NCBI GenBank assembly: GCA_965205265.1
Contig: CBDBGH010000003.1
Span: 960,001 to 1,024,000, forward strand
DNA length: 64,000 nt
Reading direction: 5' to 3'
From: Alphaproteobacteria bacterium
Lineage (GTDB): Bacteria; Pseudomonadota; Alphaproteobacteria; Bin95
The notes beneath the pieces are model-generated. The model saw only the letters and a list, made by a program, of their open reading frames with translations. It was not told the origin of the DNA and did no database searches. Positions 19,142 to 39,640 of the stretch are shown one piece after another. Position 1 is the first letter of the stretch. Each line of letters opens with the position of its first letter. Both the position numbers and the translations under genes were made by a program.

Positions 19142-19240
19142 CTGCCGCATTCATGCCGGCATGCTTCTCTTCCCCTACTTTCCAGCTTTGCAGCACATGA
19201 ACAATTTCCGATACTTCTAAATTTTGTTCCCTGTATGGGC

Positions 19241-19267
19241 TTGACATCTGGCGGATTGTGGTATGAC
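19241..19267 (+). promoter_or_regulatory. Promoter-like site of element copy A
   Basis: TTGACA-N15-TATGAC with TGTGG (extended -10) behind an AT-rich tract; same geometry in copy B. Confidence 0.55.
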
Positions 19268-19345
19268 GGCTCCCAGGGAAGCGGACTCCGGAGCCGCCTC
19301 CCCCGGGTGCTGCGCAGCGCCATTTTTGAAAACACCCGAGAAGCC

Positions 19346-19465
19346 AACGGGAGACGTGCGTCCTGTGCTTCGCGCGCGCAATCAGGCGCGCAAACCGCGC
19401 CGCCGCGAAATGCGCGCCGGCGGGCGCGGGCTCAGGCGCGCAGGATACGCGCGAAACAGGGACCC
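19346..19465 (+). ncRNA. Putative structured RNA/ssDNA motif, copy A
   Basis: Outer stem CCTG..TTCGCGCG / CGCGCGAAACAGG enclosing GGCGCG-CAAAC-CGCGCC and TGCGCGCC..GGCGCGCA hairpins; conserved in three copies. Confidence 0.5.
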
Positions 19466-19490
19466 GCTCCCCGTCGGAGGAGGAGAGACG

Positions 19491-20087
19491 ATGACCGCAA
19501 CCGACCCCCGCCCCGAACTGGCGGCGATGCTGGCCGAAAAGCTGGCACCGGCCGCCGCAGCCCTCGCCGCCGCCTATGCGGAAGATATGAACGCAGCGCC
19601 GCCGCCGGAGGACGACCGCGCCCTTGCCGAACATCACCGCGCCGGACGCGCCGCGCTCTCGCATCTGCGCCAGCTCCTCAACGTGCTCGACTGGGCCGCC
19701 ACCCGCATGCCCGAGCCGGAGCCTTTGCCTGCCGGGGAGACGGCGGACGACCTCGACGACTGGGCGCCGGAGCCGGAACCGGAGACCGGCTATGACGGCA
19801 GCGAGGACGAATACCACTATTTCGACGAGGTCTATGTCGGCAGCCAGCAGACGCCGGAGTTCCGGGCCTGGCATGCGGAGCAGGAGCGCCGCTTCGGGCC
19901 GCTGGTGCCGGACGAGGACAGTTACGACGGCAGCGAGGACTACTACAACTTCGGCGAGCGCCAGTATGTGGGCAAGCTGACCACGCCTGAGTTCTACGAC
20001 TGGCTCGCCCGCCAGGAACGCCGCGAGGCCGCAGAACTCGCCGCAAGAGAAGCCGCAGAAGGAGGCGGGAGCGTCGGCGGGCGGTAG
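19491..20087 (+). CDS. Hypothetical 198-aa protein with a helical N-terminus and two acidic/aromatic repeats
   Basis: Strong RBS GGAGGAGGAG; high GC3; YDGSED..YVG...TPEF..W...QERR twice, 44 aa apart. Confidence 0.75.
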   Translation: MTATDPRPELAAMLAEKLAPAAAALAAAYAEDMNAAPPPEDDRALAEHHRAGRAALSHLRQLLNVLDWAATRMPEPEPLPAGETADDLDDWAPEPEPETGYDGSEDEYHYFDEVYVGSQQTPEFRAWHAEQERRFGPLVPDEDSYDGSEDYYNFGERQYVGKLTTPEFYDWLARQERREAAELAAREAAEGGGSVGGR

Positions 20088-20247
20088 GGCCTCGCGCCGC
20101 AAGGGGCAGCGCTCGCCGAGAGAGGTCCCGGATCGACGCTGACGCGCCGTCCGGGACAACGGGAGAGGCTTGAAAGGAAATCGAAGAGCGGACGGCTTCA
20201 TGCCCGAAACGACTACAGCATATGACTCCGGCGCATACAAAACATGA

Positions 20248-20495
20248 GGGGCTTATATGGATAGGTTGACAACAGGTTTGGGAGGCTTCGCACCTTCTCT
20301 CCGGCGTCCAACCCGCCCCCATATCGTCATACCCGGACTTGTTCCGGGTATCCATGCGGCCGTCCGGCGGCAGCGGTGGAGAGAGATACCCGGAACAAGT
20401 CCGGGTATGACGGAGGGGACGTGACGGAGGGGGCGTTGAGGTATGACGGAAGAAATGTCGTCGGTCTCCCCCGTCAACCTATCCATATAAGCCCC
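20248..20495. mobile_element. 248-bp MITE (IS1595/IS1016-like ends, inferred)
   Basis: Perfect 23-bp TIR GGGGCTTATATGGATAGGTTGAC; 8-bp TSD AAACATGA at 20240-20247 and 20496-20503. Confidence 0.88.
20325..20412. repeat. REP doublet (REPIN/RIME-like hairpin) inside the MITE
   Basis: CGTCATACCCGGACTTGTTCCGGGTATC ... GATACCCGGAACAAGTCCGGGTATGACG. Confidence 0.85.
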
Positions 20496-20567
20496 AAACA
20501 TGACATATCATGACGCCTGCCGGGTGTGGGCTGTTATGCGTCCTCGCTGCCCATGGCTCCCGCGGCC

Positions 20568-21515
20568 TCAACCGTATTTGGCCGCATAGCCGCCGTCGGC
20601 CTGCGGTTCGACGAAATGGACCAGCAGGCCGCCGCCGAAATTGGATGGGTGGACGAAGCCGATCAGCGAGCCGCGCCCGCCGGGCCGGCCTTCGAGGTCG
20701 ATCATGCGCCAGCCGTCACCGGCAAGCTTCGGCAGCAGCGCGTCGATATCGCGCGTGGCGAAGGCGACATGCGCGAGACCCGGCCCCCGCCGCGCCACGA
20801 ATTTCGCGATCGCGCTCTGGTCGCCCTTGGTATTGCCCTTCTCCTCGCCGAGCCCGTCCCTGGGCTTCAGCGCCGGGTCGTAATCCATCAGCAGTTCGAG
20901 ATCGCAGTCGCCGATGGCGATGAACACGTCGCGCAGCCCGCCCAGAATCTCCGCCGGGCGCGAATGATAGACCGCGCCGTATTTGTCGGAGACGAAGCTC
21001 TCGGTCACGTTGCGAATCTCGACGTCGGTCTGCCTGCTTTCGACGGGACAGCCGAGATTGCCCGAGAAAACGCGCACCGTGGCGTCATTGTCGTCGGTGG
21101 CGACGCCGAGATGGTCGATCTTGTAGGCGGGACCGTCGGCCGAGGGGACGTCCAGCGGCTCGATGAAGCGGGTGCGGATGCCGACGGTCTCCCGCGGATC
21201 GACGACAACGAACCGCCTGCCGTCCGGCCCCGCGCCCTCGGCCGTGACCGTGAGGCCGTGCCGGGCGGCGGTGCCGGCGGGGTCCGGCGCGGCCAGCGCC
21301 ATGTGGTGGACGCCCGGGAATTGCGGCTCTTCCAGATAGGAGTCGTAAGGGTCGAACAGCGCCACCGCCGATCTGCCGACGCCGAAAAACGGAACGGTGC
21401 GGCCGCCCAGCGCCACATCGGTCCGCTCCAGGCCGAGCGAGCCGCCGAGGAACCGGCAGGCGGCTTCCGCGTCGCGGGCCGCCAGCGCCAGGTAGTTGAG
21501 CGCATAACCGGCCAT
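20568..21515 (-). CDS. Two-domain VOC-family protein (methylmalonyl-CoA epimerase-like C-terminal domain)
   Basis: GVHHMAL, IDHLGVA, GPGLAHVAF, GRPGGRGSLIGFVHP. Confidence 0.8.
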   Translation of the reverse strand: MAGYALNYLALAARDAEAACRFLGGSLGLERTDVALGGRTVPFFGVGRSAVALFDPYDSYLEEPQFPGVHHMALAAPDPAGTAARHGLTVTAEGAGPDGRRFVVVDPRETVGIRTRFIEPLDVPSADGPAYKIDHLGVATDDNDATVRVFSGNLGCPVESRQTDVEIRNVTESFVSDKYGAVYHSRPAEILGGLRDVFIAIGDCDLELLMDYDPALKPRDGLGEEKGNTKGDQSAIAKFVARRGPGLAHVAFATRDIDALLPKLAGDGWRMIDLEGRPGGRGSLIGFVHPSNFGGGLLVHFVEPQADGGYAAKYG

Positions 21516-21518
21516 GGG

Positions 21519-22445
21519 TCAGACCTCCTCGCGCTGGACGAAATGCATCAGCACGCCGCCGATCATGGTGGGATGCATGAAGCCGATGAGCGCGCGGCGG
21601 GAGCCCGGCCGGCCGACCGTGTCGATGGTCCGGTGGCCCGCCGCGCGGAGCGTCGCCAGCGACCCGGCCACGTCCGGCGTCTTGAAGGCGATGTGGTGCA
21701 GCCCCGCGCCGCGCGCCGCGATGTAGCGCGCGATGGCGCTGCGGTCGCCGCGCGTGTTGCCGGCCGCGTCGTGCCGCGCCGCATCGGCCTCGACGCCCGT
21801 CGTCAGGTCCTGGATGAACTCCAGCTCCGTGTCGCCGACGGTGATGAAGGTCACCCGCATGCTGCCGACCAGATGCGACGGCCGCGTGTGGAAAATGTAG
21901 TTGTAGGTGTCCGAGGTGAAATTCTCCGAGATCGTCTCGTTTTCGCTGTCGGTCTGCTGGCTCTCATAGACGCAGCCCAGCCCGTCGATGAACGCCTCGC
22001 GCGCCGCCTCGTTATCGGCCGACGCCACGCCCAAATGGTCGATCCGCTCGACCATCGCGGACGAACCGGATCCGGCGCCGAGCGGCGCGGCAAGGCGTGT
22101 GCGCACCCCGGCCGTCGCCTCCGGCGAAAGCGCCACCTGCGGCCCGCCGCCCAGGCCCTCCGAGACGCCGCCCGCCGTCGGGATGCCGGACTCCCGGGCG
22201 GCTGCCTCGGGGTCCGCGGTGGCAATGGCCATATGGTGGACACCCTTCTTCGCATCCGGCCCGAGAAACGGGTCGTCCGGGCGGAAAAGGGCAAGCGCCG
22301 AGCGCCCGACCGAGACCACGGGCACACGGGAGCCGCCGCAGGCGAAGTCCTGCCGCGGCAACTGGAAATCCTTCTCGAAGATCGCCGCGCTGGCCTCCGG
22401 CTCATCGACGGCAAGCGCCACATAGGCAAGGTCGGGAGCGGCCAT
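21519..22445 (-). CDS. Two-domain VOC-family protein, paralog of the adjacent gene
   Basis: GVHHMAI, IDHLGVA, GAGLHHIAF, GRPGSRRALIGFMHP. Confidence 0.8.
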   Translation of the reverse strand: MAAPDLAYVALAVDEPEASAAIFEKDFQLPRQDFACGGSRVPVVSVGRSALALFRPDDPFLGPDAKKGVHHMAIATADPEAAARESGIPTAGGVSEGLGGGPQVALSPEATAGVRTRLAAPLGAGSGSSAMVERIDHLGVASADNEAAREAFIDGLGCVYESQQTDSENETISENFTSDTYNYIFHTRPSHLVGSMRVTFITVGDTELEFIQDLTTGVEADAARHDAAGNTRGDRSAIARYIAARGAGLHHIAFKTPDVAGSLATLRAAGHRTIDTVGRPGSRRALIGFMHPTMIGGVLMHFVQREEV

Positions 22446-22475
22446 GAGTCCTCCGTTCGGCTCTTGAGGCAGGCC

Positions 22476-23252
22476 TCAAACGATCTCCAACTCCACCGTG
22501 CCCAGCGCCTCGTGGGTATAGACGGCGCGGTTGCCGGCTTCCAGGAACTGGGTCGGGACGATGGAACCCGTCATCACAAGTTCGCCGGCGCGCAGCGGGC
22601 GGCCGCGGGCGATGGCGTTGTTGGCCAGCCAGGCGAGCGGCTCGAAGGGATGGCCCATGGCGTCGCCGCCCCGACCCTCGCCCACGGGCTTGCCGTCGAT
22701 CTCCAGGCTGCCGCGCGCGCCCACGAGGTCGAGCGCCTGCCAGTCGGAGACTTCCGCGCCGACCGCCACGCCGCCGTTCCAGGCATTGTCGGCGATCAGC
22801 TCGAAGGCGTTCATGTTGTTGTAGTCGGCCTCGCGGTCGTCGATGAGCTCGAAGGCGGCCGCGACCGCGCCGACATGAGCGGCCACGCTCTCCCGCGTCC
22901 AGGGCCGGCCCGTGTCCGGCAGATCGTCGGCAAGGCGCACCATCGCCTCGCATTCGAGCCCGATGCGCATCAGCGCCGAGCGCGCCAGCGTCGCCGGCGA
23001 GCGGTGGACGCGTTCGGCGAAGATCGCGCCGGCGCAGGGCTGGTCGATGCCGGGCACGACGCGGCGCATGGCGGCGGAGGTGAGCGCCACCTTCCAGCCG
23101 GCCACGGGCAGGCCGAAGCCGGCGACGAGCGCTTCCTGGACACTGTAGGCCTCGTCCTCGGATTTGGGCGCGATGCCGGCGGGCAGGCGCTCAAAACGCC
23201 GGCCCTCGCGGTGCGCGGCAAGCAGGAAGTCCGCTGCTGCCTGGACGCTCAC
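22476..23252 (-). CDS. 2-keto-4-pentenoate hydratase-like protein (FAH superfamily)
   Basis: GTG overlaps upstream stop; AYSVQ, GWKVALTS, ECE, IADNA, GHPF..LAWLAN, VMTGS. Confidence 0.85.
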   Translation of the reverse strand: MSVQAAADFLLAAHREGRRFERLPAGIAPKSEDEAYSVQEALVAGFGLPVAGWKVALTSAAMRRVVPGIDQPCAGAIFAERVHRSPATLARSALMRIGLECEAMVRLADDLPDTGRPWTRESVAAHVGAVAAAFELIDDREADYNNMNAFELIADNAWNGGVAVGAEVSDWQALDLVGARGSLEIDGKPVGEGRGGDAMGHPFEPLAWLANNAIARGRPLRAGELVMTGSIVPTQFLEAGNRAVYTHEALGTVELEIV

Positions 23253-23650
23253 ACGCCCATCTCCTCGAACACTTTCGAGGCCTCGCGGAACGCCTCGACC
23301 GCAGCCGGGACGCCGGCATAGATGCCGACCTGCAGGAACACCTCGGCGATTTCCTCCTTGGTGACGCCGTTGTTGAGGGCGCCGCGCGTGTGCAGGCGGA
23401 GCTCGTGGGTGCGCCCGAGGGCGGCCAGCATGGTCAGGTTCATGATGCTGCGGGTCTTGTCCGGCAGGCCGTCGCGGCACCACACCGTGCCCCAGCAATA
23501 TTCGGTGACGAATTGCTGGAGCTGGTGGGCGAAATCGTCCTCCGCGCCCCTGGCGATGGAAGGGCCGACATACTCCTCGCCGAGCACCCGGCGGCGGGCT
23601 TCCAGGCCCTGCTCGAAGCCGGGCGTGCGGTTGTAGCTGCTGAGGTCCAT
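23249..23650 (-). CDS. Carboxymuconolactone decarboxylase-family protein
   Basis: RRRVLGEEYV, EYCWGTVWCR, ELRLHTRGALNNG, IYAGVPA. Confidence 0.88.
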   Translation of the reverse strand: MDLSSYNRTPGFEQGLEARRRVLGEEYVGPSIARGAEDDFAHQLQQFVTEYCWGTVWCRDGLPDKTRSIMNLTMLAALGRTHELRLHTRGALNNGVTKEEIAEVFLQVGIYAGVPAAVEAFREASKVFEEMGV

Positions 23651-23950
23651 GGTCCTGTTCGCTCCGTTTCGGTCCCCCGCAGCAAAGCCCATTCCCGCCC
23701 TGCGCTCAAGCGGGGTTCGAGACACGGCAACCGAATTCAAGCGCGGCTTTCGAGCATGGTGGAAGGAAAGGAAACATCCACAAACGCTGTCACCCCCGTC
23801 TGTTCCCGTCCCCGAGCAGGGAAGGCGGGCCCGGCCCCGGTTCTCGCGGCAGCCCCGGACCGCCAGGACAGGCCCCGGCGGTCCGGCCCGCTCTCCACCG
23901 GCTGCGGCGGCATCGAAGGCCAGAGCGGCGATTCGAGTCCGAACCGGAAA

Positions 23951-24480
23951 TATGTATCTATTGGAATAGGTTCCGATAAAATTCAGAATATTCGGGCTAT
24001 ATTTCTCTTATAGTAATTGCATTTTCAGAAAATGTGGTATGATGATCCGAAGGAAGAGGCATCAGCGGACCGCTTCCTGCCCGCGCCGGCCCGGCGTGGA
24101 CCGACCCCGATTCAGCCGACGGGCGAGGTGAGCCCTGCATCCGTCTCGCGCGCAATCAGGTGCGCGAACCGCGCCGGCGCGAAACGCCCGCCCGCCCGCG
24201 CACGGGCGCGCACGCGATACGCGCGAAACAGGGTCCTGCCGTTCCGGGACGCCCGGGGGGGGGGGTGGCGCCAACGCCGCCATCCGGAATGTTCGCTGCG
24301 TTCGGCACGGTGGCGGGAAAAACGGAACAATGACGGATCGAAAGGAAGGGCCATGTCGAAGAGACGGAGCCGGGGGAACCCGGATGCGATACCCGGAACT
24401 CGAGCCCGAAGCGACGGCGTCATGCCTGGAAGGACCACAGGATATGCATCGTAAACATGCAGATCATGACATTTCATGAC
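23951..24480 (+). repeat. Composite intergenic element, copy B
   Basis: AT-rich island; TTGCAT-N15-TATGAT (24017-24043); core 24118-24236; RBS and 33-aa ORF 24353-24454; tail 24413-24480. Confidence 0.75.
24118..24236 (+). ncRNA. Putative structured motif, copy B
   Basis: CCCTG..GTCTCGCGCG / CGCGCGAAACAGGG outer stem; GGTGCG-CGAAC-CGCGCC hairpin retained through a G-U pair. Confidence 0.5.
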
Positions 24481-24547
24481 GTATCGCCGGGGTGCGGCTC
24501 ATAACATGCCGCTCGGGTCCTCCTCCCGACCGGTGCGAAGCGCGCGG

Positions 24548-25657
24548 TCAGGAGAGTACGGAGATCGTCTTCGCCCGGATGAGGTCGAAGTCGATGGCGG
24601 CGCCGAGGCCGGGCGTTTCGGGCGCGTGGACCCGCCCGTCGCCGTCCACGACGATTTCCTCCGCGAGGCCGTAGCGGTGGGCGCCGTCGGGCATCAGCAC
24701 CTCGAACATCTCCGTGTTCGGGATCGAGCAGATGAGATGCAGGTTCGCCATGTTGTTGAGCGAATTGCCGCCGTGATGGACCTCGTAGGACATGTGGAAG
24801 GCCTCGGCGAGATGGGCGGTCTTGAGGCAGGCGGTGAGCCCGCCCTTCACCGCCACGTCGCCGCGCAGATAGTCGGTGGCCTGCAGCAGCAGCCAGGGCG
24901 CATAGGCCTGGAAGCCGCCGGGACTGTATTCCGTCGCGAGGATCGGGATGTCGAGCTTCTGGCGCAGCTTGATGTAGTTGGTGATGTCGTCGTCGGCGAG
25001 CGGGTCCTCGTACCAGTAGAAGCCGAGCCGCTCCGCCGCCCGGCCGACGCGCATCGCCGCCGGGTAGTCGTAGGACCAGGTGCTGTCCAGCATGATGCGG
25101 TAACCGTCGCCGACCGCCTTGCGCACGGCTTCGCAGACGCGGATATCCTCGTCCGGGTCGGTCGGCGGGTGGATCTTGTAGGCCTTCCAGTTCGCGTCGC
25201 GGAAGGAGACCGCCTCCTCGGCATAGGCTTCGGGCGAGGCGAGCACGGCGGAGCTGGCATAGGCGGGCGCGCTCGTCCTAACCGTGCCCATCAGCCGGTG
25301 GATCGGCAGGCCCGCCGCCTTGCCGGCGATGTCCCAGAGCGCGATATCGACCGCGCCGATCGCCCGCCAGGTGGTGTTACGGTTGCGTGCTGTCAGCCCA
25401 AGGTAAAGCCTCTCGCGGTCGAGCGGGTTCTCGCCCATCACCTGCGGCTTGAGGAAGCGGATGAGCGAATCGGCGTCGCTCGCCGCGCCCCGGCTGGCCG
25501 AGCCAAGAAACGCGTGGCCCTCGATCCCGTCATCCGTGCGGAGCGTCAGCAGGCCGAGTTCGCTCCGGCCCTGGAAGGTCCCCGTATGGCTGCCATAGGT
25601 TGTCGCCGGGATGTCGTCCCAGGCGAACAGGGTGAGTGTCACATCGTCGATCTTCAT
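24548..25657 (-). CDS. Mandelate racemase/muconate lactonizing (enolase superfamily) enzyme
   Basis: AVDIALWDIAGK, YKIH, IMLDS, WYEDP, ATE, EVHHG. Confidence 0.88.
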   Translation of the reverse strand: MKIDDVTLTLFAWDDIPATTYGSHTGTFQGRSELGLLTLRTDDGIEGHAFLGSASRGAASDADSLIRFLKPQVMGENPLDRERLYLGLTARNRNTTWRAIGAVDIALWDIAGKAAGLPIHRLMGTVRTSAPAYASSAVLASPEAYAEEAVSFRDANWKAYKIHPPTDPDEDIRVCEAVRKAVGDGYRIMLDSTWSYDYPAAMRVGRAAERLGFYWYEDPLADDDITNYIKLRQKLDIPILATEYSPGGFQAYAPWLLLQATDYLRGDVAVKGGLTACLKTAHLAEAFHMSYEVHHGGNSLNNMANLHLICSIPNTEMFEVLMPDGAHRYGLAEEIVVDGDGRVHAPETPGLGAAIDFDLIRAKTISVLS

Positions 25658-25680
25658 GGGGCGCCGCGCCCTCCTGCCAT

Positions 25681-25709
25681 CTTGAACCGCGGCGCGAAGC
25701 GTCTCATAT
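25681..25709 (+). promoter_or_regulatory. RpoH (sigma32)-type heat-shock promoter of htpG
   Basis: CTTGAA-N16-CTCATAT about 40 bp upstream of the htpG ATG; matches the alphaproteobacterial RpoH consensus. Confidence 0.7.
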
Positions 25710-25746
25710 GCCGGGCCGGGACGGAACAGGCGGAAGGACACACGCG

Positions 25747-27600
25747 ATGAGCGAAGAGCGCCAGGCGTTTCAGGCGGAGGTCGGACGCATTCTCGATCTC
25801 ATGGTGCACTCGGTCTATTCGGACAAGGAAATCTTCCTGCGCGAGCTGATCTCGAATGCGGCGGACGCCTGCGACCGGCTGCGCTACCGCGCCATCGCCG
25901 AGCCGGAATTGCTGGACGGGGACGCCGAATTCCGCATCCGCATCGAGGTGGACAAGGAGGCGCGCACCATCGCCGTCGCCGACAATGGCGAAGGCATGGG
26001 CCGGGAGGAGCTGGCGGAAAATCTCGGCACTATCGCGCGCTCGGGCACCGCGGCTTTCGCCGACAGGCTGACCGGCGACGCCAAGAACGACGTGGCGCTG
26101 ATCGGCCAGTTCGGCGTCGGCTTCTATTCCGCCTTCATGGTGGCGGAGCGGGTGCAGGTGGTCTCGCGCGCCGCCGGGGCGGAAGAGGCGTTCGCCTGGG
26201 AGTCGGACGGGCGGGGCGAATTCACCGTCTCGGAGGCGGAATGGGACGCGCGCGGCACCGAGGTCCGGTTGCATCTGAGGGAGGGCGAGGACGAGTTCCT
26301 GGAGCCGGCCCGGCTCCGGTCTGTGGTCAAGACCTATTCGGATCACATCGCCATCCCGGTGGAGATGGACGGCGAGACCGTCAACGAAGCCTCCGCCCTC
26401 TGGACCCGGCCGCGGAACGAGATCGAGCCGGAGCAATATGCCGAGTTCTACCGCCATGTCGGCCATACCTTCGACGAACCGTGGCTCACCTTGCATTTCC
26501 GCGCCGAGGGCGTGATCGAATATGCGGGCCTCCTGTTCGTGCCGACATCGCGACCGTTCAACCTCTTCCACCCGGACCGCAAATCCGCGCTCAAGCTCTA
26601 TGTGAAGCGCGTCTTCATCACGGACGACGCGCCGGAGCTGGTCCCGGGCTGGCTGCGCTTCCTGCGCGGCGTCGTGGACAGCGAGGACCTGCCGCTCAAC
26701 CTCTCGCGCGAGATGCTGCAACGGAACCCCGTGCTCCGGCGCATCCGCGACGGGCTGGTGCGCCGGGTGCTGGGCGAACTCAAGACGAAGGCTGAGGCGG
26801 ACGAAAAAGGCTACGAGACCTTCTGGGACGCCTTCGGGCCTGTGCTCAAGGAAGGGCTCTACGAGGACGCCGGCCAACGCGAGGCGCTGCTGGAGCTGGC
26901 GCGCTTCCGCTCGACCGCTTCGGAGGGCTGGACGACGCTCGCCGGCTATGCCGAGCGGATGCGCGAGGGCCAGGAGGCGATCTACTACATCGCCGGCGAG
27001 GAGGGCGCTGGGCTTGCCGGCAGCCCGCATCTGGAGGGCTTCCGCGCCCGCAAGGTCGAGGTGCTGCTGCTGCAGGACCCGGTGGACGATTTCTGGGTGC
27101 CGGCCGTCGGCGAGTATGAGGGCCGGCCCTTCGTCTCGGTTTCGCGCGGCGGCATCGACCTCGGCGCCATTCCGCCCGCTGAGGACGGGGCGCCGAAGGA
27201 GGAGGACGGGCCGGCGGCCGATATCGCTTCGCTGGTCGCGCTGCTCAAGGTCACGCTGGGCGAGGCGGTCAAGGACGTGCGCGGCTCGGAGGCGCTCACT
27301 GAAAGCGCGGTGCGCCTGGTGGCGGACGAGGGCGACATGGACCTGCATCTGGAGCGGATGCTGCGCCGTCACGGCCAGATCGACGGCGCGGCGTCGCGCC
27401 GCGTGCTGGAGCTCAATCCCCGACACCGGCTCGTGCAGGGCCTTGCGCGTTCCATGGCGGCCGGGGAGGACCGGGCCGCGCAGCTCGCGCCGCTGCTGCT
27501 GGACCAGGCGCGCATTGCCGAGGGTGAGGCGCCGGAAGACCCCGCCGCCTTCGCCCGCCGCCTCGCCGACGCGCTCGCGGACAGCCTGCCCGGCGAGTGA
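25747..27600 (+). CDS. htpG: Chaperone HtpG (Hsp90)
   Basis: FQAEV, YSDKEIFLRELISNA, IGQFGVGFYS, DSEDLPLNLSRE. Confidence 0.97.
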   Translation: MSEERQAFQAEVGRILDLMVHSVYSDKEIFLRELISNAADACDRLRYRAIAEPELLDGDAEFRIRIEVDKEARTIAVADNGEGMGREELAENLGTIARSGTAAFADRLTGDAKNDVALIGQFGVGFYSAFMVAERVQVVSRAAGAEEAFAWESDGRGEFTVSEAEWDARGTEVRLHLREGEDEFLEPARLRSVVKTYSDHIAIPVEMDGETVNEASALWTRPRNEIEPEQYAEFYRHVGHTFDEPWLTLHFRAEGVIEYAGLLFVPTSRPFNLFHPDRKSALKLYVKRVFITDDAPELVPGWLRFLRGVVDSEDLPLNLSREMLQRNPVLRRIRDGLVRRVLGELKTKAEADEKGYETFWDAFGPVLKEGLYEDAGQREALLELARFRSTASEGWTTLAGYAERMREGQEAIYYIAGEEGAGLAGSPHLEGFRARKVEVLLLQDPVDDFWVPAVGEYEGRPFVSVSRGGIDLGAIPPAEDGAPKEEDGPAADIASLVALLKVTLGEAVKDVRGSEALTESAVRLVADEGDMDLHLERMLRRHGQIDGAASRRVLELNPRHRLVQGLARSMAAGEDRAAQLAPLLLDQARIAEGEAPEDPAAFARRLADALADSLPGE

Positions 27601-27606
27601 CGGGAT

Positions 27607-29263: not shown

Positions 29264-29779
29264 TCAGTCCTTCTTGCGGCGCTTCGACTTGTCCAGCCGC
29301 CGCAGGATCATGCCGCGCTTGACCGCCGACAGGTGGTCCACATGCAACACGCCGTTCAGATGGTCGATCTCGTGCTGGAGGCAGCGGGCGCGCAGGCCCT
29401 CGGCCTCGATCTCCTGCGGTTCGCCGTTCTCGTCGAGATAGGCGATGCGCACCGCTTCCGGCCGCTCCACATCCACATAGACCTCGGGCAGGGAGAGACA
29501 GCCTTCGTTGCCGATGACGAGTTCCTCCGAGCGCCAGACAACTTCCGGATCGACCAGCTTGAGCGGGGCCGGCTCTTCCTCGTCGCGGGCGCAGTCGATC
29601 ACCACCAGGCGCTTCAGCACGCCGACCTGCGGCGCCGCCAGCCCGATGCCGGGCGCGGCATACATGGTCTCCAGCATGTCGTCGAGCAGGCGCCGGGCGG
29701 CGTCGTCCACCTCGCCCACTGGGGCGCATTTGGTCCGCAGCCGCCGGTCGGGCGCGATCAGGATGTCGAGCGTGGCCAT
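29264..29779 (-). CDS. def: Peptide deformylase
   Basis: GIGLAAPQ, EGCLS, QHEIDHL. Confidence 0.97.
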   Translation of the reverse strand: MATLDILIAPDRRLRTKCAPVGEVDDAARRLLDDMLETMYAAPGIGLAAPQVGVLKRLVVIDCARDEEEPAPLKLVDPEVVWRSEELVIGNEGCLSLPEVYVDVERPEAVRIAYLDENGEPQEIEAEGLRARCLQHEIDHLNGVLHVDHLSAVKRGMILRRLDKSKRRKKD

Positions 29780-29840
29780 GTCCGCAGGTCGTCGATTTCG
29801 GGCCGCCTTATGCCACGGCGCGCCGCCTCCCGGAAGCCCG

Positions 29841-30401: not shown

Positions 30402-30414
30402 CGCCGGTTCCTCC

Positions 30415-31389: not shown

Positions 31390-31543
31390 GGGCCGCGTTC
31401 CCCGATGCGCCCGGGATCATGAGTCCGGTCGCGCGGCGCCAGTATGCGTCCAATCTCGACGCTCGACAATGAAGTGCCGGTGCGCCGTTGTCCGGCGGCC
31501 GCAATGCGAGGGCCGCCGGACAACAGCCATGCGGCGCGGGCTG

Positions 31544-32887: not shown

Positions 32888-32954
32888 GGGCTTCGCGCCT
32901 CCGCAGCAGGGACAGGAATCCCAGAATCGGCTCGGAGTCCGGGGCGGATGCGCC

Positions 32955-32995
32955 CGTTCGCGACGATTTTCGCGGCATGTGCGACAGAATTTTGC
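32955..32995 (-). promoter_or_regulatory. Putative AraC/GlxA-type operator: GCGAC half-sites 21 bp apart
   Basis: GCGACgATTTT at 32960 and GCGACagaATTTT at 32981, between the regulator and its divergent target. Confidence 0.45.
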
Positions 32996-33076
32996 TTCCG
33001 GAGCCCCGGAACCGATTGACAAGCCGGCAACACAGCGGCATTTGCAGCTTTAGCGTCATATTGCCGGAGTCGGCCC

Positions 33077-34102
33077 ATGGCTGGCGAGCAGGTATTCCGC
33101 GGGAGCGACGGCGCACCTGTCGAGGTGACGCTCCTGCCCATTCCGAACTTCTCCCTTTCGAGTTTCGCGGCGTTGGTCGAACCCCTTCGCCTTGCGAACT
33201 ACGTTGCGGAGCGTCCGCTCTACAGCTGGCGGGTCGTAACGCCGGAAGGCGCGCCGGTGCGCTCCAGTTGCGGCGTGGCGGTGGCGGCGGACGAGCCGGC
33301 CGAGCGCATCCGAAGACCGGAGAACATCGTTGTCTGCGGCGGCGTGGACGGCTGGGCCTATGAGGATCAGGCCGCGCTTGCGCTGTTGCGCCGCTGGGCG
33401 CGGGACGGCGCATATGTGGGCGCGGCATGCACCGGGGCCTATGTGCTGGCCCGGGCCGGCCTGTTGCGGGACCGGCGCTGCACCATCCACTGGGAGAGCC
33501 TCGACGGGTTCGCCGAACGGTTCCCGGATATCGACCTGCGCGCGGCGCTGTTCGAGATCGACCGCGACCGGTTCACCTGCACCGGCGGCGAGGCGGCGTG
33601 CGACATGGTCCTCCAGGACATCGCCTGGCGTCACGGCGGGGACATCATGGCGGCGGTGGCGGGACAGCTCCTGCATGACCGCGTGCGGAGCGGGCGCGAC
33701 GAACGCTACCTGCCGCACCAGGCGTGGCTGCGTACCAGCCATCCCGTGCTGGTCAAGGCGTTGACGGCCATGGCCGCGAATCGGGAAGAGCGCCTTTCCC
33801 TGGTCGAGATCGCCCGGGAGGCCAATGTTTCGCCGCGCCAGCTCGAGCGGCTGTTCCGGCGCTATCTCGATTCGACCCCGGCGCGCTGGTATCTGCGGAT
33901 GCGGCTGACGCGGGCGCGCCAGTTGCTGATCGAGACGCAAATGCCGGTGACCTGGATCGCGGTCGCCTGCGGTTTCGGCTCGACCTCGCATTTCTCCAAG
34001 AATTACCGCCAGTTCTTCGGCGTCTGCCCGCGCGAGGAACGCCGCCAGCGGCGGGCCGCGCGCGAATCCGCTGCCGCGCCGCCTGTGAGCCGCGCGGCAT
34101 AG
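33077..34102 (+). CDS. GlxA-family AraC transcriptional regulator
   Basis: EPLRLAN, CTGA..LA.AGLL, CTIHWE, SPRQLERLF, ACGF.S.SHFSK. Confidence 0.92.
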   Translation: MAGEQVFRGSDGAPVEVTLLPIPNFSLSSFAALVEPLRLANYVAERPLYSWRVVTPEGAPVRSSCGVAVAADEPAERIRRPENIVVCGGVDGWAYEDQAALALLRRWARDGAYVGAACTGAYVLARAGLLRDRRCTIHWESLDGFAERFPDIDLRAALFEIDRDRFTCTGGEAACDMVLQDIAWRHGGDIMAAVAGQLLHDRVRSGRDERYLPHQAWLRTSHPVLVKALTAMAANREERLSLVEIAREANVSPRQLERLFRRYLDSTPARWYLRMRLTRARQLLIETQMPVTWIAVACGFGSTSHFSKNYRQFFGVCPREERRQRRAARESAAAPPVSRAA

Positions 34103-34232
34103 AACGCAGCTCGATCCTATCCGGGCTTCTTCCGCGCCGGTCGCTGCCGCTGCTCCGCTGTCCGTTACCCTGGGCCGGCGTGTCGGGCTATGCTCCGGTG
34201 AAACCGGCCCGCTATGGAGGACTGAAGAGCCC

Positions 34233-35120
34233 ATGCCTTACGCAACGACCGACGACGGGGTGCGCCTGTATTACGAGGAGGCCGGGTCGGGGACGCCGGT
34301 CGTCTTCGTGCATGAGTTCGCGGGCGACATGCGCTCCTGGGAGCCGCAGATGCGGCACTTTGCGCATCGTTACCGCGTGCTCGCCTATAATGCGCGCGGC
34401 TATCCGCCCTCCGAGGTGCCGGAAGACCCGGCCAAGTATAGCCAGACGCGCGCCGCGGACGACATCGCCGCCGTCATGGACGCCGTCGGCATCGACCGCG
34501 CGCATATCTGCGGGCTGTCCAAGGGCGGGTTCGCCACCTTGCATTTCGGTTTCCGCCATGCCGAGCGCGCGATCTCCCTTGTCGTGGCGGGCTGCGGTTA
34601 CGGGGCGGAGCCGGACAAGCGCGCGCAGTTCAAGGCCGAGGCCGAGGCGACGGCGGCGCTGATCGAGCGCGACGGCATGGAGGCGTTCGCCGACATCTAC
34701 GCGCAGGGGCCGACCCGGGTGCAGTTCGAAAACAAGGACCCGCGCGGCTGGCGCGAGTTCCGCGACCAGCTTGCCGAACATTCGCAGGCGGGGGCGGCCG
34801 CCACCATGCGCGGCCTCCAGGCTAAGCGGCCCTCGCTCTACGACCTGATGGACGAGATGGCGGCGCTCCGGGTGCCGACCCTGGTGCTGACCGGCGACGA
34901 GGACTGGCCCTGCCTGCTGCCGGGCGTGCTGATGAAACAGACCATCCCCTCGGCGGCGCTCTCGGTAATGGTCAATTGCGGGCACACCATCAATATCGAG
35001 GACCCGGACGAGTTCAACCGCATCTGCGGCGAGTTCTTCGCCCAGGTGGATGCCGGCCGCTGGCCGGAGCGCGACCCGCGCGCGGTGACGGGCTCGATCC
35101 TCGGCGTCGAGGCGAAGTAG
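34233..35120 (+). CDS. Alpha/beta hydrolase
   Basis: HEFAGD, ARGYPPS, GLSKGG nucleophile elbow, GDED, GH. Confidence 0.85.
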   Translation: MPYATTDDGVRLYYEEAGSGTPVVFVHEFAGDMRSWEPQMRHFAHRYRVLAYNARGYPPSEVPEDPAKYSQTRAADDIAAVMDAVGIDRAHICGLSKGGFATLHFGFRHAERAISLVVAGCGYGAEPDKRAQFKAEAEATAALIERDGMEAFADIYAQGPTRVQFENKDPRGWREFRDQLAEHSQAGAAATMRGLQAKRPSLYDLMDEMAALRVPTLVLTGDEDWPCLLPGVLMKQTIPSAALSVMVNCGHTINIEDPDEFNRICGEFFAQVDAGRWPERDPRAVTGSILGVEAK

Positions 35121-35127
35121 GCGACGG

Positions 35128-36189
35128 TCAGGCGGCGGCGGCTTCCAGGGCGTCGAGCGGGGCCGTCGGCCGCACATTTGCCGGAAGCCGGAGGCCGAGC
35201 GGGCGGCCCGTGGCCGGGTCGCGGCCGTGGCGGCTGAAGAAAGGCTCCGGCACGGCGCGCCCGTCCGGCACGGCCAGCCAGATCCGGTAGAGGTGGCGCT
35301 TCCGGCCCGGCAGTTCCTCATAGGCCGTGCGCGTGTGCAGGACCGCCAGATTGTCGATCCACTGGATGTCGCCCGGCTGGAAGTCCATGTCGAGGCGAAG
35401 GTCCGCTTCGGCGGCGGTCCGCTCCAGGAAGTCGAGGGCTTCCACCTGTCGGGGCGTCAGGTCCGGCGCGCCTTCGTGCCGCGTGCAGGAATCGATGAAG
35501 CGCCGCACGAGGTTGACCGTCATGCGCCCGTCGGCGGCCCGCATGAAGACCGGCATCTCGTACCAGGGAAGCTGGCCTTCCACCTCCTCGCCGCGCCGGT
35601 CGATCAGGAAGGGCTCGGCGAGCACCTGCGCAAGGTCCGGGCGGCGTTCGAGGATGCGGTTCCAGACCGCGCCGGCGCTGACGATGCTGGAGAGCCCGCC
35701 CGTTCGCGCCGGGACGAGGCAGAACAGCCCGACGATCTCCGCGCCGATATCGGTGTGGAACGGCAGTTCGGCCGAGGACTGGTAGCCGCGTTTGTTCGGC
35801 GCCCAGGCGTCGATGCCGAGGTCCTTCACATGGCCGAGCAGGTGCCCGAGCGGGTTCTGGCAGACGGGCATGCCGATGCGCGAGCCGATGGCCCAGAAGG
35901 CGCGCGCGGCCACTTCGCGCGGCCACTCGTCCACCGGCAGGCCGCGCATGAGCGCAAAGCCGCAGCCTTCGACCACGGCGTCGCGCATCTCCTTGAGGCG
36001 CGCATCGAGGCGGGGCAGAGGCAGGTCGGCGCGGCCGAGCCCGGTGAGCTCGCGGTCGAGCGCGGCGGTCGCCGCCGCTTCCAGTTCGGCGATCTCGCCG
36101 GCGTCGAGCGTCACGATCCAGTCGTCGCGCCGCATGAGCTCGCCGCCATGCCAGACCGACGGACCGATGATGGGTTCGAGCGCCGTCAT
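35128..36189 (-). CDS. TauD/TfdA-family Fe(II)/2-oxoglutarate dioxygenase
   Basis: FHTD, LFCL, QPGDIQW.DN..VLHTR, RHLYRIWL. Confidence 0.88.
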   Translation of the reverse strand: MTALEPIIGPSVWHGGELMRRDDWIVTLDAGEIAELEAAATAALDRELTGLGRADLPLPRLDARLKEMRDAVVEGCGFALMRGLPVDEWPREVAARAFWAIGSRIGMPVCQNPLGHLLGHVKDLGIDAWAPNKRGYQSSAELPFHTDIGAEIVGLFCLVPARTGGLSSIVSAGAVWNRILERRPDLAQVLAEPFLIDRRGEEVEGQLPWYEMPVFMRAADGRMTVNLVRRFIDSCTRHEGAPDLTPRQVEALDFLERTAAEADLRLDMDFQPGDIQWIDNLAVLHTRTAYEELPGRKRHLYRIWLAVPDGRAVPEPFFSRHGRDPATGRPLGLRLPANVRPTAPLDALEAAAA

Positions 36190-36204
36190 GGGCCTTCCTC
36201 CCGC

Positions 36205-37467
36205 TTATGCGCCGGTTTGCGCGATGTCCCGGCGGCAGAATGCGCCCGGCCAGTCTATCGCATCGACGCCGCGATAGGCCAGCGCGCGCGCCTCGGCGCG
36301 GGTTGCGCCGGCGGCCGAGACGCCGAGCACCCGCCCGCCGGCCGCGAGTACCCGCCCGGCGTCGCCTGCCGCCGTGCCGGCATGGAAGACGGTCACGCCT
36401 TCCGGCATGCCGTCGAGGCCCGCGATTTCGCCGCCCCGGTCATACGGCCCCGGATAGCCCCGGTTCGCCATCACGACGCAGACCGACGCCTCCGCCGACC
36501 ATCGGAGATCGACATGGGAGAGATCGCCTTCGGCCGCCGCGACCAGCGCCGGCAGCAGGTCCGAGCGCAGGCGGAGCATCAGCGCCTGCGTTTCCGGGTC
36601 GCCGAAGCGGACATTGAATTCCAGCAGCTTCGGCTCGCCGTCCTCGATCATCAGCCCGGCGAACAGCACGCCGCGATAGGGCGTGCCGTCGGCCGCCATC
36701 TGCCGGACGGCCGGCAGGAAGATCTCGTTCTCGATCCTGGCCGCAAGCTCCGGCGCGACAGCTGGCGCGGGCGAGTGGCTGCCCATGCCGCCCGTATTGG
36801 GCCCGGTATCGCCCTCGCCCACGCGCTTGTAGTCCTGCGCCGTCTCCAGCATGAGCACGCGCTCGCCGTCGGCCAGCGCGAAGGCGCTCACTTCCTCGCC
36901 CCGCAGGCAGTCTTCAATGACAACCCTGGCGCCCGCCTCGCCGAAGGCGCGCTCGACCATGGCGGCGCTCACGGCGGCTTCGGCCTCTTCCACCGTCGCG
37001 GCGACGGTGACGCCCTTGCCGGCGGCGAGGCCGTCCGCCTTCACCACGACCGGCGCGCCGCGCTCCCGGATATGGGCCCGGGCGGCGCCGGCATCGTCGA
37101 ACACCGCAAAGCCGGCCGTGGGAATGCCGGCCCGGCGTGCGAGGTCCTTCATGAAGGCCTTGGAACTTTCCAGCCGCGCTGCCGCCCTGTCCGGCCCGAA
37201 TACCGCGATGCCGTCCTGCCGGAGGCGGTCCGCCAGCCCGGCCGCCAGCGGCGCTTCCGGCCCGACGACGACGAGGTCCATGCGCTCCTCCCGCGCAAGC
37301 GCCGCCAGGCTTTCGACATCCTCGGCGGCGACCGGCACGCAGTCGGCCTCGGCCGCGATCCCGGGATTGCCGGGCGCGCACCAGAGCCGCTCCACCAGCG
37401 GCGAGGCCGCAATCGTCCAGACGAGCGCATGCTCGCGCCCGCCGCCGCCCACCACCAGAACCCGCAT
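36205..37467 (-). CDS. purD: Phosphoribosylamine-glycine ligase
   Basis: GGREHAL, VGPEAPL, KADGLAAGKGV, GPNTGGMG, EFNVRFGDPE. Confidence 0.97.
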   Translation of the reverse strand: MRVLVVGGGGREHALVWTIAASPLVERLWCAPGNPGIAAEADCVPVAAEDVESLAALAREERMDLVVVGPEAPLAAGLADRLRQDGIAVFGPDRAAARLESSKAFMKDLARRAGIPTAGFAVFDDAGAARAHIRERGAPVVVKADGLAAGKGVTVAATVEEAEAAVSAAMVERAFGEAGARVVIEDCLRGEEVSAFALADGERVLMLETAQDYKRVGEGDTGPNTGGMGSHSPAPAVAPELAARIENEIFLPAVRQMAADGTPYRGVLFAGLMIEDGEPKLLEFNVRFGDPETQALMLRLRSDLLPALVAAAEGDLSHVDLRWSAEASVCVVMANRGYPGPYDRGGEIAGLDGMPEGVTVFHAGTAAGDAGRVLAAGGRVLGVSAAGATRAEARALAYRGVDAIDWPGAFCRRDIAQTGA

Positions 37468-37508
37468 GGCCTTCACGCCCTCCCGATTCGCGTGTATCTC
37501 CGGCAGGT

Positions 37509-38960
37509 ATGACGCAAGCGCCGCCGCTTTCCAACATACCGGAATACACGGTCGGCGAGGTCTCGGCAGCCGTTCGCCGCAATCTGGAAGCCGGGTTCCC
37601 GCGCGTGCGGGTGCGCGGCGAGGTGTCGGGCTTCAAGCGCGCCGCCTCGGGCCACCTCTATTTCAACCTGAAGGACGACCGGGACGTGCTGAACGCCGTG
37701 TGCTGGCGCGGCGCGGCGGGGCGGCTCGGACTTCGCCCGGAAGACGGCATGGAAGTGGTCGCGACGGGCCGGGTGACGGCCTATGGCGCGCGCTCCGCCT
37801 ACCAGCTTGTCGTGGACGCGCTCGACCTTGCGGGCGAGGGGGCGCTGCTCAAGCTGCTGGAGGAGCGCCGGCGGCGCCTCGCCGAAGAGGGGCTGTTCGC
37901 GGAAGACCGCAAGCGGCCGATTCCCTTCCTGCCGGAGCGTATCGGCATCGCCACCTCGCTCGGCGGGGCGGTGCTGCACGATATCCTGCACCGGCTGCGC
38001 GAGCGTTTCCCGCGCCATGTGCTGGTCTGGCCCGTGCCGGTGCAGGGCGAGGGCGCGGCGGAGAGGATCGCCGAATCCGTGGACGGCATGGGCGCGCTGC
38101 CGCCGGAGATGCGCCCTGACGTGCTGATCGTGGCGCGGGGCGGCGGCTCCTTGGAGGACCTTTGGGCCTTCAACGAGGAAGCGGTCGTGCGCGCGACGGC
38201 CCGCTCCGCCATTCCGCTGATCTCGGCTGTCGGCCATGAAACCGATACGACGCTGATCGATTTCGCCGCCGACCTTCGCGCGCCAACGCCGACGGCTGCG
38301 GCGGAAATGGCGGTGCCCGTCCGCGCGGAACTCCTTGCCCGGACAGGCGGGCAGGGAGAACGGCTGCTGGCCGCCGGCGCGCGTCTCGTGCAGGAGCGCC
38401 GGGCGCAGATCGCGGGCCTCGCGCGGGGCCTGCCGGCGCCGACGGCGCTTCTGGAACAGGCGAGCCAGAGGCTGGACGACAGGGGCGAGCGCATGGAAGC
38501 GGGGCTCCGTGCCCGCGTGGCGCTGGCCGCGTCCCGGATCGCGGAACTCTCGGCGCGCTTCGGGCGGCCGCGCGCGCTGCTCGACGCCCAGCAGGAGCGG
38601 CTGGCGGCGCTGGGCGCATCCTTTGTCCGCGCCGGGCAACACAGGGTCGAGGTCGAGGCCCACCGGCTGGAGCGGCTCGATGCGGGGCGGCGTTTGCCTG
38701 CGGCCTGGCATCGGCTTGCCGAAAACGCCGCCGCCGGACTCAAGCGGGCCGGCGCGTTGCTTGAAAGCTCTTCCTACCGCCGCGTGCTTGAGCGCGGCTT
38801 CGCCCTGGTGCGGGACGAGAGCGGGCCCGTTGTGTCGGCGGCGGAGGCACGCAAGCGAGGGCGCGTCGAAATCGTCTTCGCCGACGGCGAGGCTGCGGCC
38901 CGAATCGTCGGGGAAGGCCAGGAGGGGCCCGCCAAACCGAAGCAGGGAACGCTCTTCTGA
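37509..38960 (+). CDS. xseA: Exodeoxyribonuclease VII large subunit
   Basis: SGHLYFNLKD, VQGEGAA, ARGGGSLEDLWAFN, SAVGHETD, RAPTPTAAAE. Confidence 0.96.
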   Translation: MTQAPPLSNIPEYTVGEVSAAVRRNLEAGFPRVRVRGEVSGFKRAASGHLYFNLKDDRDVLNAVCWRGAAGRLGLRPEDGMEVVATGRVTAYGARSAYQLVVDALDLAGEGALLKLLEERRRRLAEEGLFAEDRKRPIPFLPERIGIATSLGGAVLHDILHRLRERFPRHVLVWPVPVQGEGAAERIAESVDGMGALPPEMRPDVLIVARGGGSLEDLWAFNEEAVVRATARSAIPLISAVGHETDTTLIDFAADLRAPTPTAAAEMAVPVRAELLARTGGQGERLLAAGARLVQERRAQIAGLARGLPAPTALLEQASQRLDDRGERMEAGLRARVALAASRIAELSARFGRPRALLDAQQERLAALGASFVRAGQHRVEVEAHRLERLDAGRRLPAAWHRLAENAAAGLKRAGALLESSSYRRVLERGFALVRDESGPVVSAAEARKRGRVEIVFADGEAAARIVGEGQEGPAKPKQGTLF

Positions 38961-39073
38961 TACCGGCGGCGCGGGGTTGCGACCCACGAAGATGCCTCCC
39001 CGCCATCGCCCCGGACCTTGAACCCTACCGGATTCACGCATCTGCCAACGATCTCGGACTACGCGCTCTCATG

Positions 39074-39163
39074 CGTCGCCCCGAACCCCGATCCGGGGCC
39101 TTGTGCAGCCGGAGCTCCGCTGCACGGAGGCCCCGGCTCGCCCTGCGGGCGTCCGGGGCGACG
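39074..39163. repeat. REP/RIME-like palindrome (second sequence type)
   Basis: CGTCGCCCCG ... CGGGGCGACG outer arms with nested GGGGCC/GGCCCC and GTGCAGC/GCTGCAC stems. Confidence 0.6.
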
Positions 39164-39193
39164 ATTGGGGCGCGGGGAGGGACTGCGGAATGT

Positions 39194-39640
39194 GTCATGG
39201 GATGTCATGTTTTCCATGCCGGGCGGTCATGCACTACAGCCGTTCCAGGCATAACGCTCTCGGTTCCGCCCCGGCTTCCGCCTGTTTCTCCGGGGTCTTC
39301 CATCTTCGGGTTCGGGGCATGGGTTTCTCCTTTTCGCTCCCGTTTCGTTCCATCCGCCTGCCGGCGGCGGGACCCTGATTCGCGCGTAATGCGCGCGGGT
39401 GCCCGCGCCCGCGGGCGCACGTTTCGCGCCGGCGCGATTCGCGCGCCTGATTGCCCGGGAGCGCCCCCGCGCGCGATCCGGACGCAGGGCGCACGTCTCC
39501 CGTTCGCTCTGAGGGGGTCTTTACGCGCCGACGCGGCAGCAGACGGCCTCCGGATGACGCCTGCTCGCGCCCTATATGGCTGAGAGCGGCTCTAATATCA
39601 AGTCCCTATACAGAATTATTTCAAAATTTTCGAACAATCC
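39194..39640 (-). repeat. Composite intergenic element, copy C
   Basis: AT-rich island; CTTGAT-N17-CCATAT (39602-39574); core 39504-39369; RBS AAGGAG and 28-aa ORF 39320-39234; tail 39261-39194. Confidence 0.75.
39369..39504 (-). ncRNA. Putative structured motif, copy C
   Basis: CCCTG..GATCGCGCG / CGCGCGAATCAGGG outer stem; GGCGCG-CGAAT-CGCGCC hairpin. Confidence 0.5.

Follow-up and report, generated by a model that had tools for sequence, protein, structure and literature searches.

The pac sites of pac-type phages lie in or adjoining terS, the gene for the small terminase, and the small terminases of Staphylococcus aureus pathogenicity islands and other phage-inducible chromosomal islands (SaPI/PICI) redirect the packaging of a helper phage to the island's own pac site. 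In the gene transfer agent (GTA) of Rhodobacter capsulatus (RcGTA), the small terminase gp1 is described as having no DNA-binding domain, as binding DNA without specificity and as the product of a gene within the particle cluster (PMC6854486). Here we describe a family of dispersed cassettes, three of which (loci A, B and C) lie in a 64-kb stretch of an alphaproteobacterial chromosome (hereafter the window; C3:960001-1024000 of the 5.70-Mb, three-contig genome G000), and whose members include genes for a protein related to small terminases (TerS-like protein, terS-like gene). We show that the cassettes combine a promoter-like site, a leader, a ribosome-binding site, interchangeable cargo and a phased array of CATGAC motifs (the tail), that they descend from a terS-like gene with its array and that their copies are homogenised within genomes. 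As an explanation, to which we assign slightly less than an even chance, we propose that the cassettes are a lineage-specific family derived from a stand-alone terS-like gene and its 3' site array, with the TerS-like protein docking on the tails and possibly choosing packaging sites.

The initial annotation had placed three loci with one module order in the window, and all three are indeed present. When aligned, A, B and C have in common an AT-rich island (29-42% G+C, against 69% in the window), a promoter-like -35/-10 pair, a G+C-rich core and a tail ending in two CATGAC units. A blastn search with the three cores against all three contigs of G000, in which matches were merged, yielded 73 core loci, all on the large contig and in about equal number on the two strands; the cores of A, B and C match one another and 70 further loci with E values of 1e-12 to 1e-73, and the similarity is therefore far beyond chance. 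The anticipated multitude of copies thus exists, and the roughly 70 copies are all intergenic. CATGAC-N4-6-CATGAC follows within 2.7 kb downstream on the same strand at 64 of the 73 core loci; seen from the tail, the genome has 108 such motifs, of which 92 sit no more than 2.6 kb behind a core. Because the counts from core to tail and from tail to core agree, the two modules co-occur in fixed order and orientation, and what had been suspected from three copies is real: a family of many self-contained cassettes of expression type. These measure 0.5-1.5 kb; the shortest (~530 bp) run from TTGTTC and an AT-rich stretch through a -35/-10 pair, a hairpin, a second G+C-rich hairpin and the core to a third hairpin, a purine-rich ribosome-binding site with ATG and the tail module. 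Two pairs of loci (e0/e71, at C3:350 and 4632917, and e1/e72, at C3:42722 and 5413714) have identical flanks, so that a few of the 73 loci may stem from large duplicated blocks or from an artefact of the assembly, the genome being listed with 7.3% contamination.

Classification of what follows each of the 73 cores revealed two conserved cargo genes. The terS-like gene is full-length at 7 loci, none of them in the window, and partial at 4, and a gene for a 198-aa protein is full-length at 9, locus A among them, and partial at 2; neither gene is found at the remaining 51, including B and C. That the cassettes carry different cargo is borne out by the profiles of the two proteins, which have only their ..P.HD.. 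end in common, these last residues being encoded by the CATGAC units themselves. The open reading frames (ORFs) of A, B and C had been considered mutually unrelated, which is true of the 198-aa cargo of A; those of B and C are versions of a single short-form module (MPKTxSRxNR...) in shifted frames, with indels of 2 and 22 nt between copies. As the frame is not kept between copies, these small ORFs are not established genes, and the tail module of the short form is open in two frames.

The TerS-like protein (~300-330 aa) matches the Pfam family Terminase_2 (PF03592) over residues 11-85 (E 4e-13; profile positions 2-73 of 141) and phrog_51 (E 5e-14), and a profile of the family matches the DNA-binding domain of SF6 G1P (PDB 2cmp/4zc3) with an E value of 2.7e-8. 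Its AlphaFold model contains a confident helix-turn-helix (HTH; predicted local distance difference test, pLDDT, of 93-97 over residues 11-60), followed by helices at 52-90 and 93-106. All top 10 Foldseek matches are small terminases, none with an E value reaching 0.001; among them is 4zc3 (template-modelling score, TM, 0.82; root-mean-square deviation 0.8 Å over 50 columns), and for full-length SF6 3zqq_C the probability is 0.98 but the E value 0.088 and the TM 0.36. Profile and model comparisons together show the N-terminal HTH to be homologous to the DNA-binding domain of SPP1/SF6 G1P and hence a putative DNA-binding domain. The family comprises 366 matches, nearly all full length, for which 'terminase small subunit' is the sole source name, and dN/dS values of 0.26-0.44 in 9 pairs indicate purifying selection. 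The layout had at first been assigned to no named family; full-length members in fact carry the Terminase_2 DNA-binding domain, which agrees with the phage-related origin that had been surmised. Indeed, the tail forms the 3' end of a gene of prophage type, so that part of the cassette maps to a known kind of prophage gene, an outcome that the initial annotation had counted in some measure against its own reading.

Relatives in viral genomes are confined to the N terminus. Searched by tblastn with the TerS-like protein, 50,697 phage records returned no match, and among the 2.9 million viral contigs of IMG/VR only the N-terminal ~50-90 residues matched (residues 10-90; 28-50% identity, 49 loci), leaving the C-terminal part of ~200 residues with no relative in either collection; blastn of cassette C against phages and plasmids likewise gave no match. 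One conceivable role is that of an anti-phage decoy, in which orphan TerS-like proteins and pac-like arrays would misdirect the packaging motor of an infecting phage in the manner of satellite small terminases. The retention of a small-terminase DNA-binding domain outside any phage, the lack of a full-length relative in either viral collection and the high copy number, with several lineages holding many copies, would all suit a decoy; however, no defence genes were seen near the examined loci (no PADLOC search was run), and the co-occurrence with a resident, vertically inherited large-terminase gene (terL), described below, fits cooperation as well or better, and we therefore give the decoy very little probability indeed. 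The other cargo, the 198-aa protein, has 154 homologues, and its model (pLDDT 77) consists of a helical hairpin and two beta-hairpin/helix repeats; Pfam, a fold search and the ESM Atlas provided no informative match, and in PHROGs it matches only phrog_31793, of unknown function (E 2e-6). The copy at A has dN/dS values of 0.20-0.28 against six paralogues and of 0.745 against one cross-species copy.

The tails are built with marked regularity. Each contains 2-5 CATGAC units, 107 of 129 successive spacings are 10 bp, and ATG/CATG motifs recur at about 0, -10, -19, -32 and -54 relative to the last unit. The array overlaps the stop codon of both cargo genes, and across species the terminus of either protein, ..HD(I/K)x*, is encoded within it. 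We propose that TerS-like protein supplied by the 7 intact copies would dock in cooperative fashion on the helically phased arrays of every cassette.

The history of the family can be read from its distribution. Beyond G000, 16 genomes of the genus were compared and 15 of them contain core DNA in multiple copies; it was found in none of 8 genomes of two sister genera or of 16 genomes of other families. The relatives are recorded as uncultured Alphaproteobacteria or metagenome-assembled genomes (MAGs) of Rhodospirillaceae, several of them from sponges. The surroundings of terS-like genes in other MAGs were retrieved as 79 loci. Core, gene and tail stand in order in 30 of these; 19 have the core upstream on sequences that end before the 3' end of the locus, 15 have the tail only, 14 have neither and one has a weak core match. 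Only one of the 79 (L088) bears the tail motif on the opposite strand. A distant clade of sponge MAGs (L066, L070, L071, L080 and L082) encodes TerS-like proteins of 47-55% identity and lacks the core: GAACATTTATCGAACA and a ribosome-binding site come immediately after an AT-rich promoter, with no leader, and 2-6 C(A/C)TGAC units at 10-bp spacing lie at or after the stop codon. In the five loci scanned, these genes stand alone among housekeeping genes, in positions syntenic between MAGs (flanks include purD, DsbA, a methyltransferase, an ABC transporter, a HAD hydrolase and a transketolase-like gene), and neither a large terminase nor another phage gene lies beside them. Because this clade keeps the array without the core, the gene with its array is the old part of the cassette and the core a later addition in the genus of the window.

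The promoters of the distant clade are adjoined by GAAC-N7-GAAC, which we take to be the alphaproteobacterial LexA box; the box upstream of recA in G000 has the form GTTC-N7-ATTC. In G000 itself, LexA boxes were considered as a general feature of the cassettes and rejected: a strict search found one among 73 and a degenerate search 5 of 60, with a mean of 0.8 and a maximum of 5 after shuffling. A genome of another family, G033 (loci L119-L128), presents a separate case. It has at least 8 near-identical terS-like genes of ~290 aa with a common short promoter region, ACTTGTATTCCTAGGACTATAAGCGC; two of its loci (L127 and L128) carry GAACATAATGCGAACA, again of the form GAAC-N7-GAAC, upstream. These genes are without a CATGAC tail, and the terL of G033 is 57% identical to that of G000.

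Within the genus, occupancy of the cassette sites differs between species. Locus B is absent at the orthologous site in G005, G007, G011, G012 and G014, and C in G005, G007, G010, G012 and G016; one metatranscriptome contig also reproduces the empty site at B, skipping 23714-24544. The extra blocks at B (~830 bp) and C (1.3 kb, window 38961-40284) hold unique DNA and other repeats as well, the block at C being a repeat nest between conserved genes with other repeat families on both sides. The reverse case, L040, is occupied where G000 is empty, and its junction is equally ragged. Locus A coincides with a synteny break (window 17500-23714), its left and right flanks being on different contigs in G005, G007 and G012, and the left flank in G005 and G007 carries the 5' part of a cassette; in relatives, several cassettes connect flanks whose counterparts in G000 are widely separated. 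Corresponding sites may also hold different cargo: terS at L034 and the short form at e34, terS at L056 and the 198-aa gene at e27. The TerS-like copies cluster by genome (7 of 7 in G000 and 7 of 7 in G012, with support of 100/100 and 100/99), and for e30/L020 and e70/L021 the flanks are 90-96% identical, the ORFs only 76-77%. Such clustering within genomes despite conserved flanks is, judged from the sequences, concerted evolution.

These data bear on the possibility, entertained in the initial annotation, that the cassettes move as elements. A non-autonomous element mobilised by a recombinase acting in trans, for which the array and the AT-rich left end would be binding sites and the TerS-like protein a bending factor of the Xis or transposition-helper type, would account for some 70 intergenic copies that differ in presence between species, for the site occupied at L040 and empty in G000, for the restriction of the DNA to one genus and for the frequency of deletion derivatives. 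The details, however, are at odds with it. The consensus of the copies, from TTGTTC and an AT-rich stretch at one end to CATGACA at the other, lacks terminal inverted repeats, in keeping with the first impression that the architecture is not that of an insertion sequence (IS), a miniature inverted-repeat transposable element (MITE) or CRISPR; the three empty-site comparisons (B, C and L040) revealed neither a target duplication nor a precise junction; and no transposase or recombinase was found behind any of the 73 cores, loci with more than 2.7 kb to the tail not having been scanned gene by gene, and Terminase_2 was the sole family that Pfam recognised. Moreover, orthologous sites stay occupied across species while their sequence is homogenised, and the distant clade keeps its terS-like gene at syntenic housekeeping positions. 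We thus regard a trans-mobilised element as unlikely, if worth some weight. With no such enzyme found and no inverted ends or duplications, recombination between copies is the better account: the leader and tail common to all cassettes would act as homology arms, and cargo exchange and homogenisation would then proceed by recombination and not by a transposase.

The 5' half of the cassette poses questions of transcription and RNA structure. The AT-rich islands had been described as ending in a promoter-like site, and a -35/-10 pair is found in A, B and C, with a poor -10 in C. A consensus promoter scan of the three loci called no promoters because the spacer between -35 and -10 is 15 nt; nevertheless, conservation of the -35 TTG and of the -10 TA..AT reaches 90% or more across 64 copies drawn from the window and from loci in other genomes, with TG one base before the -10 in most. 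This layout presumably resembles that of alphaproteobacterial housekeeping promoters, and we refer to it as promoter-like, that is, a putative promoter. The only terminator-like hairpin called in a terminator scan lies in the leader of A and is confined to the subfamily with 198-aa cargo, where related copies have the same form; a consensus scan found no intrinsic terminator after the tails of A, B and C. The public RNA runs that match the region consist solely of contigs assembled from sponge and marine metatranscriptomes and belonging to relatives; these are not evidence of expression, and the depth summed over repeats has no interpretable meaning.

The leader (~280 nt) consists of a variable hairpin and the almost invariant G+C-rich core. 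The apex of hairpin 1 differs among copies between the palindromes TCCGGA, TCCGCGCGGA and CCATGG, and RNAalifold on the 64 cross-genome copies found compensatory changes (GC/AU, AU/GC) in 4 of 22 predicted pairs, all in hairpin 1, upstream of the core. Together with a second leader hairpin in which, on our reading of the alignment, C-to-T changes keep G-U pairs on the sense strand only, with the terminator-like hairpin before the core in the 198-aa subfamily and with the near invariance of the core across species, this would suit a multi-copy cis-regulatory RNA element or small RNA whose tail is an RNA-processing or protein-binding signal. The core itself does not behave in this way, however: none of its pairs varies on more than one side, and many do not vary at all. 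The alignment has a covariation term of -0.82 kcal/mol, and 56 within-genome copies gave no support for a core structure. The 'structured core' of the initial annotation is therefore not upheld and, being nearly invariant with no covariation, the core is conserved as sequence. Rfam 15 has no match at gathering score in the window and only chance-level rows at E values up to 10 in 19000-24700 (A and B), the tail, with its 10-bp phasing, probably works as double-stranded DNA, and the distant clade lacks the leader entirely; an RNA element is accordingly quite improbable.

Another possibility is a dispersed regulon, in which the TerS-like protein would be an HTH transcription factor acting on the CATGAC arrays, by roadblock or termination or by control of neighbouring genes, and the cassettes would be stress-responsive units that yield the 198-aa protein or small peptides. 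Promoter elements and ribosome-binding sites are conserved in every cargo class, both cargo genes are under purifying selection, relatives carry LexA-type boxes and, with no intrinsic terminator after the tail, a protein roadblock would make sense. On the other hand, no known regulatory layout places operator arrays over the stop codons at the 3' ends of ~70 units, the DNA-binding domain belongs specifically to the type found in small terminases, and the small ORFs do not keep their reading frame. We consider a regulon improbable.

What, then, might docking of the TerS-like protein be for? G000 contains a podovirus-like particle cluster (locus L099, C3:3817400-3828000) with the sole terL of the genome (phrog_38, E 1e-71; C3:3818323-3819840) and genes for a major head protein, tail tubular A/B proteins, a holin (GTA_holin_3TM) and an S24 LexA-like repressor; GTTC-N7-GTTC lies in its divergent promoter region. 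Family matching recognised no small terminase in the cluster, since the small ORF that precedes terL matches no family and seems to be in part an artefact. A single copy of terL is present in 14 of the 16 other genomes examined in the genus and in all 4 of one sister genus. Across 41 genomes, terL and terS-like genes occur together in 15, terL only in 6, terS-like genes only in 2 and neither in 18, counts that do not amount to a statistical test because the genomes are related. The most likely use of docking would be the choice of sites at which this single, vertically inherited, LexA-box-bearing cluster starts packaging, so that the cassettes may mark loading sites for the DNA of virus-like particles; this site choice is the weakest step of our explanation. 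A stronger version would have a domesticated cluster, wired to the SOS response and deprived of its own terS, steered by TerS-like proteins from several chromosomal gene copies to ~70 dispersed pac-like arrays, in effect an addressed form of gene transfer. DNA would then be packaged and transferred from defined sites around the chromosome, and recombination after transfer would let cassettes spread, swap cargo and homogenise. To this version we lend little credence.

Several observations weigh against a role of the cassettes in packaging. GTAs described so far package DNA independently of specific sites, and discrete start sites are not known for them (PMC6854486). The 51 of 73 cassettes with neither conserved gene also fit the decay of a selfish repeat, and our explanation assigns no role to the almost invariant core. 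The co-occurrence of terL and terS-like genes is imperfect and confounded by phylogeny: G003, G008 and G013 have terL but no terS-like gene, with many cores still present in G008, and G002, at 95% completeness, has cassettes but no terL match. No cassette stands beside the particle cluster, the nearest core being ~23 kb from its end and ~33 kb from terL, and, because the cassettes are without LexA-type boxes, co-regulation with the cluster is not evident in this genus. A predicted complex of the large terminase with the TerS-like protein, which scored 0.00 in a run without controls, speaks neither for nor against it.

The three window loci illustrate the architecture at nucleotide resolution. 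Locus A, on the plus strand, opens with an island and promoter-like site at 19196-19267 (42% G+C; -35 TTGACA at 19241-19246, extended -10 TGgTATGAC at 19259-19267, 15-nt spacer). Its leader contains hairpin 1 (19276-19301, GGGAAGCGG...CCGCCTCCC) and the terminator-like hairpin with a T-run (19306-19331; stem 19306-19321, tail ATTTTTGAAA), after which come the conserved G+C-rich core (19341-19470) and, preceded by GGAGGAGGAG, the gene for the 198-aa protein, an unnamed conserved family (19491-20087). The left part of the tail, with its phased ATG/CATG motifs (20190-20247), is interrupted by a MITE of 248 bp (20248-20495) that is not part of the cassette and has 23-bp inverted ends, GGGGCTTATATGGATAGGTTGAC, and an 8-bp duplication, AAACATGA, at 20240-20247 and 20496-20503. 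The tail resumes at 20496-20514, ending in CATGAC at 20499-20504 and 20509-20514. The 68-bp tail with terminal CATGAC pairs reported from the first inspection is therefore real, with the qualification that in A it is split by the MITE. Members of the MITE family (a second complete copy is at C3:293197-293410) insert at the same 8-bp target, AAACATGA, within cassette tails; both complete copies are flanked by the duplication, and related insertions occur at the same tail point in e1/e72, e24 and e34. The MITE seems to use the cassette tail as a preferred target.

Locus B, also on the plus strand, has its island and promoter-like site at 23951-24043 (29% G+C; -35 TTGCAT at 24017-24022, TGgTATGAT at 24035-24043), with hairpin 1 at 24052-24077 and the core at 24111-24241. 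The island includes GTTCCGATAAAATTC at 23970-23984, which has the GTTC-N7-ATTC form of the box upstream of recA in G000 (C3:400420). A short-form ORF of 33 aa (24353-24454; MSKRRSRGN...), whose translation is doubtful, follows GGAAGG and overlaps the tail module (24413-24480), which ends in CATGAC at 24465-24470 and 24475-24480. Just left of B, in a block specific to G000, lies a separate short G+C-rich repeat (23827-23915) with ~15-20 partial copies in the genome. Locus C, on the minus strand, comprises an island at 39571-39640 (-35 TTGATA at 39601-39596, degenerate -10), a core at 39361-39510, a short-form ORF of 28 aa at 39234-39320 (MPRTRRWK...) and a tail module at 39194-39258 ending in CATGAC at 39209-39204 and 39199-39194.

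If our explanation is correct, a small terminase and its recognition array have left any phage behind, been amplified to dozens of chromosomal addresses and been kept uniform by gene conversion; a retained DNA-binding domain with scattered sites would then be a solution to the question of what gets packaged that differs from that of known GTAs. Even under a more cautious view the family would be of practical use, as a chief driver of rearrangement, with synteny breaks at cassettes, and as a supplier of repeated promoter-like sites in an uncultured sponge-symbiont lineage; its two conserved cargo proteins and its invariant core have no known function.

Comparison with described systems places the cassettes close to several and within none. 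The repeats that they resemble at first sight are MITEs, REP/BIME sequences (repetitive extragenic palindromes and bacterial interspersed mosaic elements) and RIME-type mosaics, which are likewise intergenic, numerous, associated with rearrangement breakpoints and nested with other repeats. Each cassette, however, is a module like a transcription unit, with promoter-like site, ribosome-binding site and ORF; two of its cargo genes are under purifying selection, and its ends have neither terminal inverted repeats nor target duplications, both of which the MITE nested in locus A displays. The counterpart in phages is G1P of SPP1/SF6 (Terminase_2) with its pac site, which the cassettes appear to match in the homologous N-terminal HTH, the long helices after it and the helically phased sites at the gene. 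They differ in having no adjacent large terminase or other phage gene, in the lineage-specific C-terminal extension of ~200 aa with no viral relative, and in number, with 7 intact genes and ~70 arrays on one chromosome; a G1P-like ring and DNA binding are putative here.

With SaPI/PICI, the cassettes have in common a small terminase encoded apart from the motor and next to its own, here putative, recognition site. Unlike the islands, they have no island body, integrase or replication module, their sites are dispersed by the dozen, and the motor that they would presumably use comes from a vertically inherited cluster in the chromosome instead of a helper that infects the cell. The likeness to RcGTA lies in a predicted particle cluster kept by the host, with a large terminase and a GTA-type holin, and in a small terminase that would decide what is packaged. 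In contrast to gp1, the TerS-like protein keeps its DNA-binding domain, its genes are dispersed, the arrays are specific and the cluster is podovirus-like. A full-text literature search judged at the level of abstracts turned up no description of dispersed multi-copy terS-like cassettes or of a podovirus-type GTA. Phased sites and the DNA-binding domain of a small terminase are, as components, of known kinds, and it is their dispersed, promoter-bearing, cargo-swapping and concertedly evolving arrangement that fits no described family.

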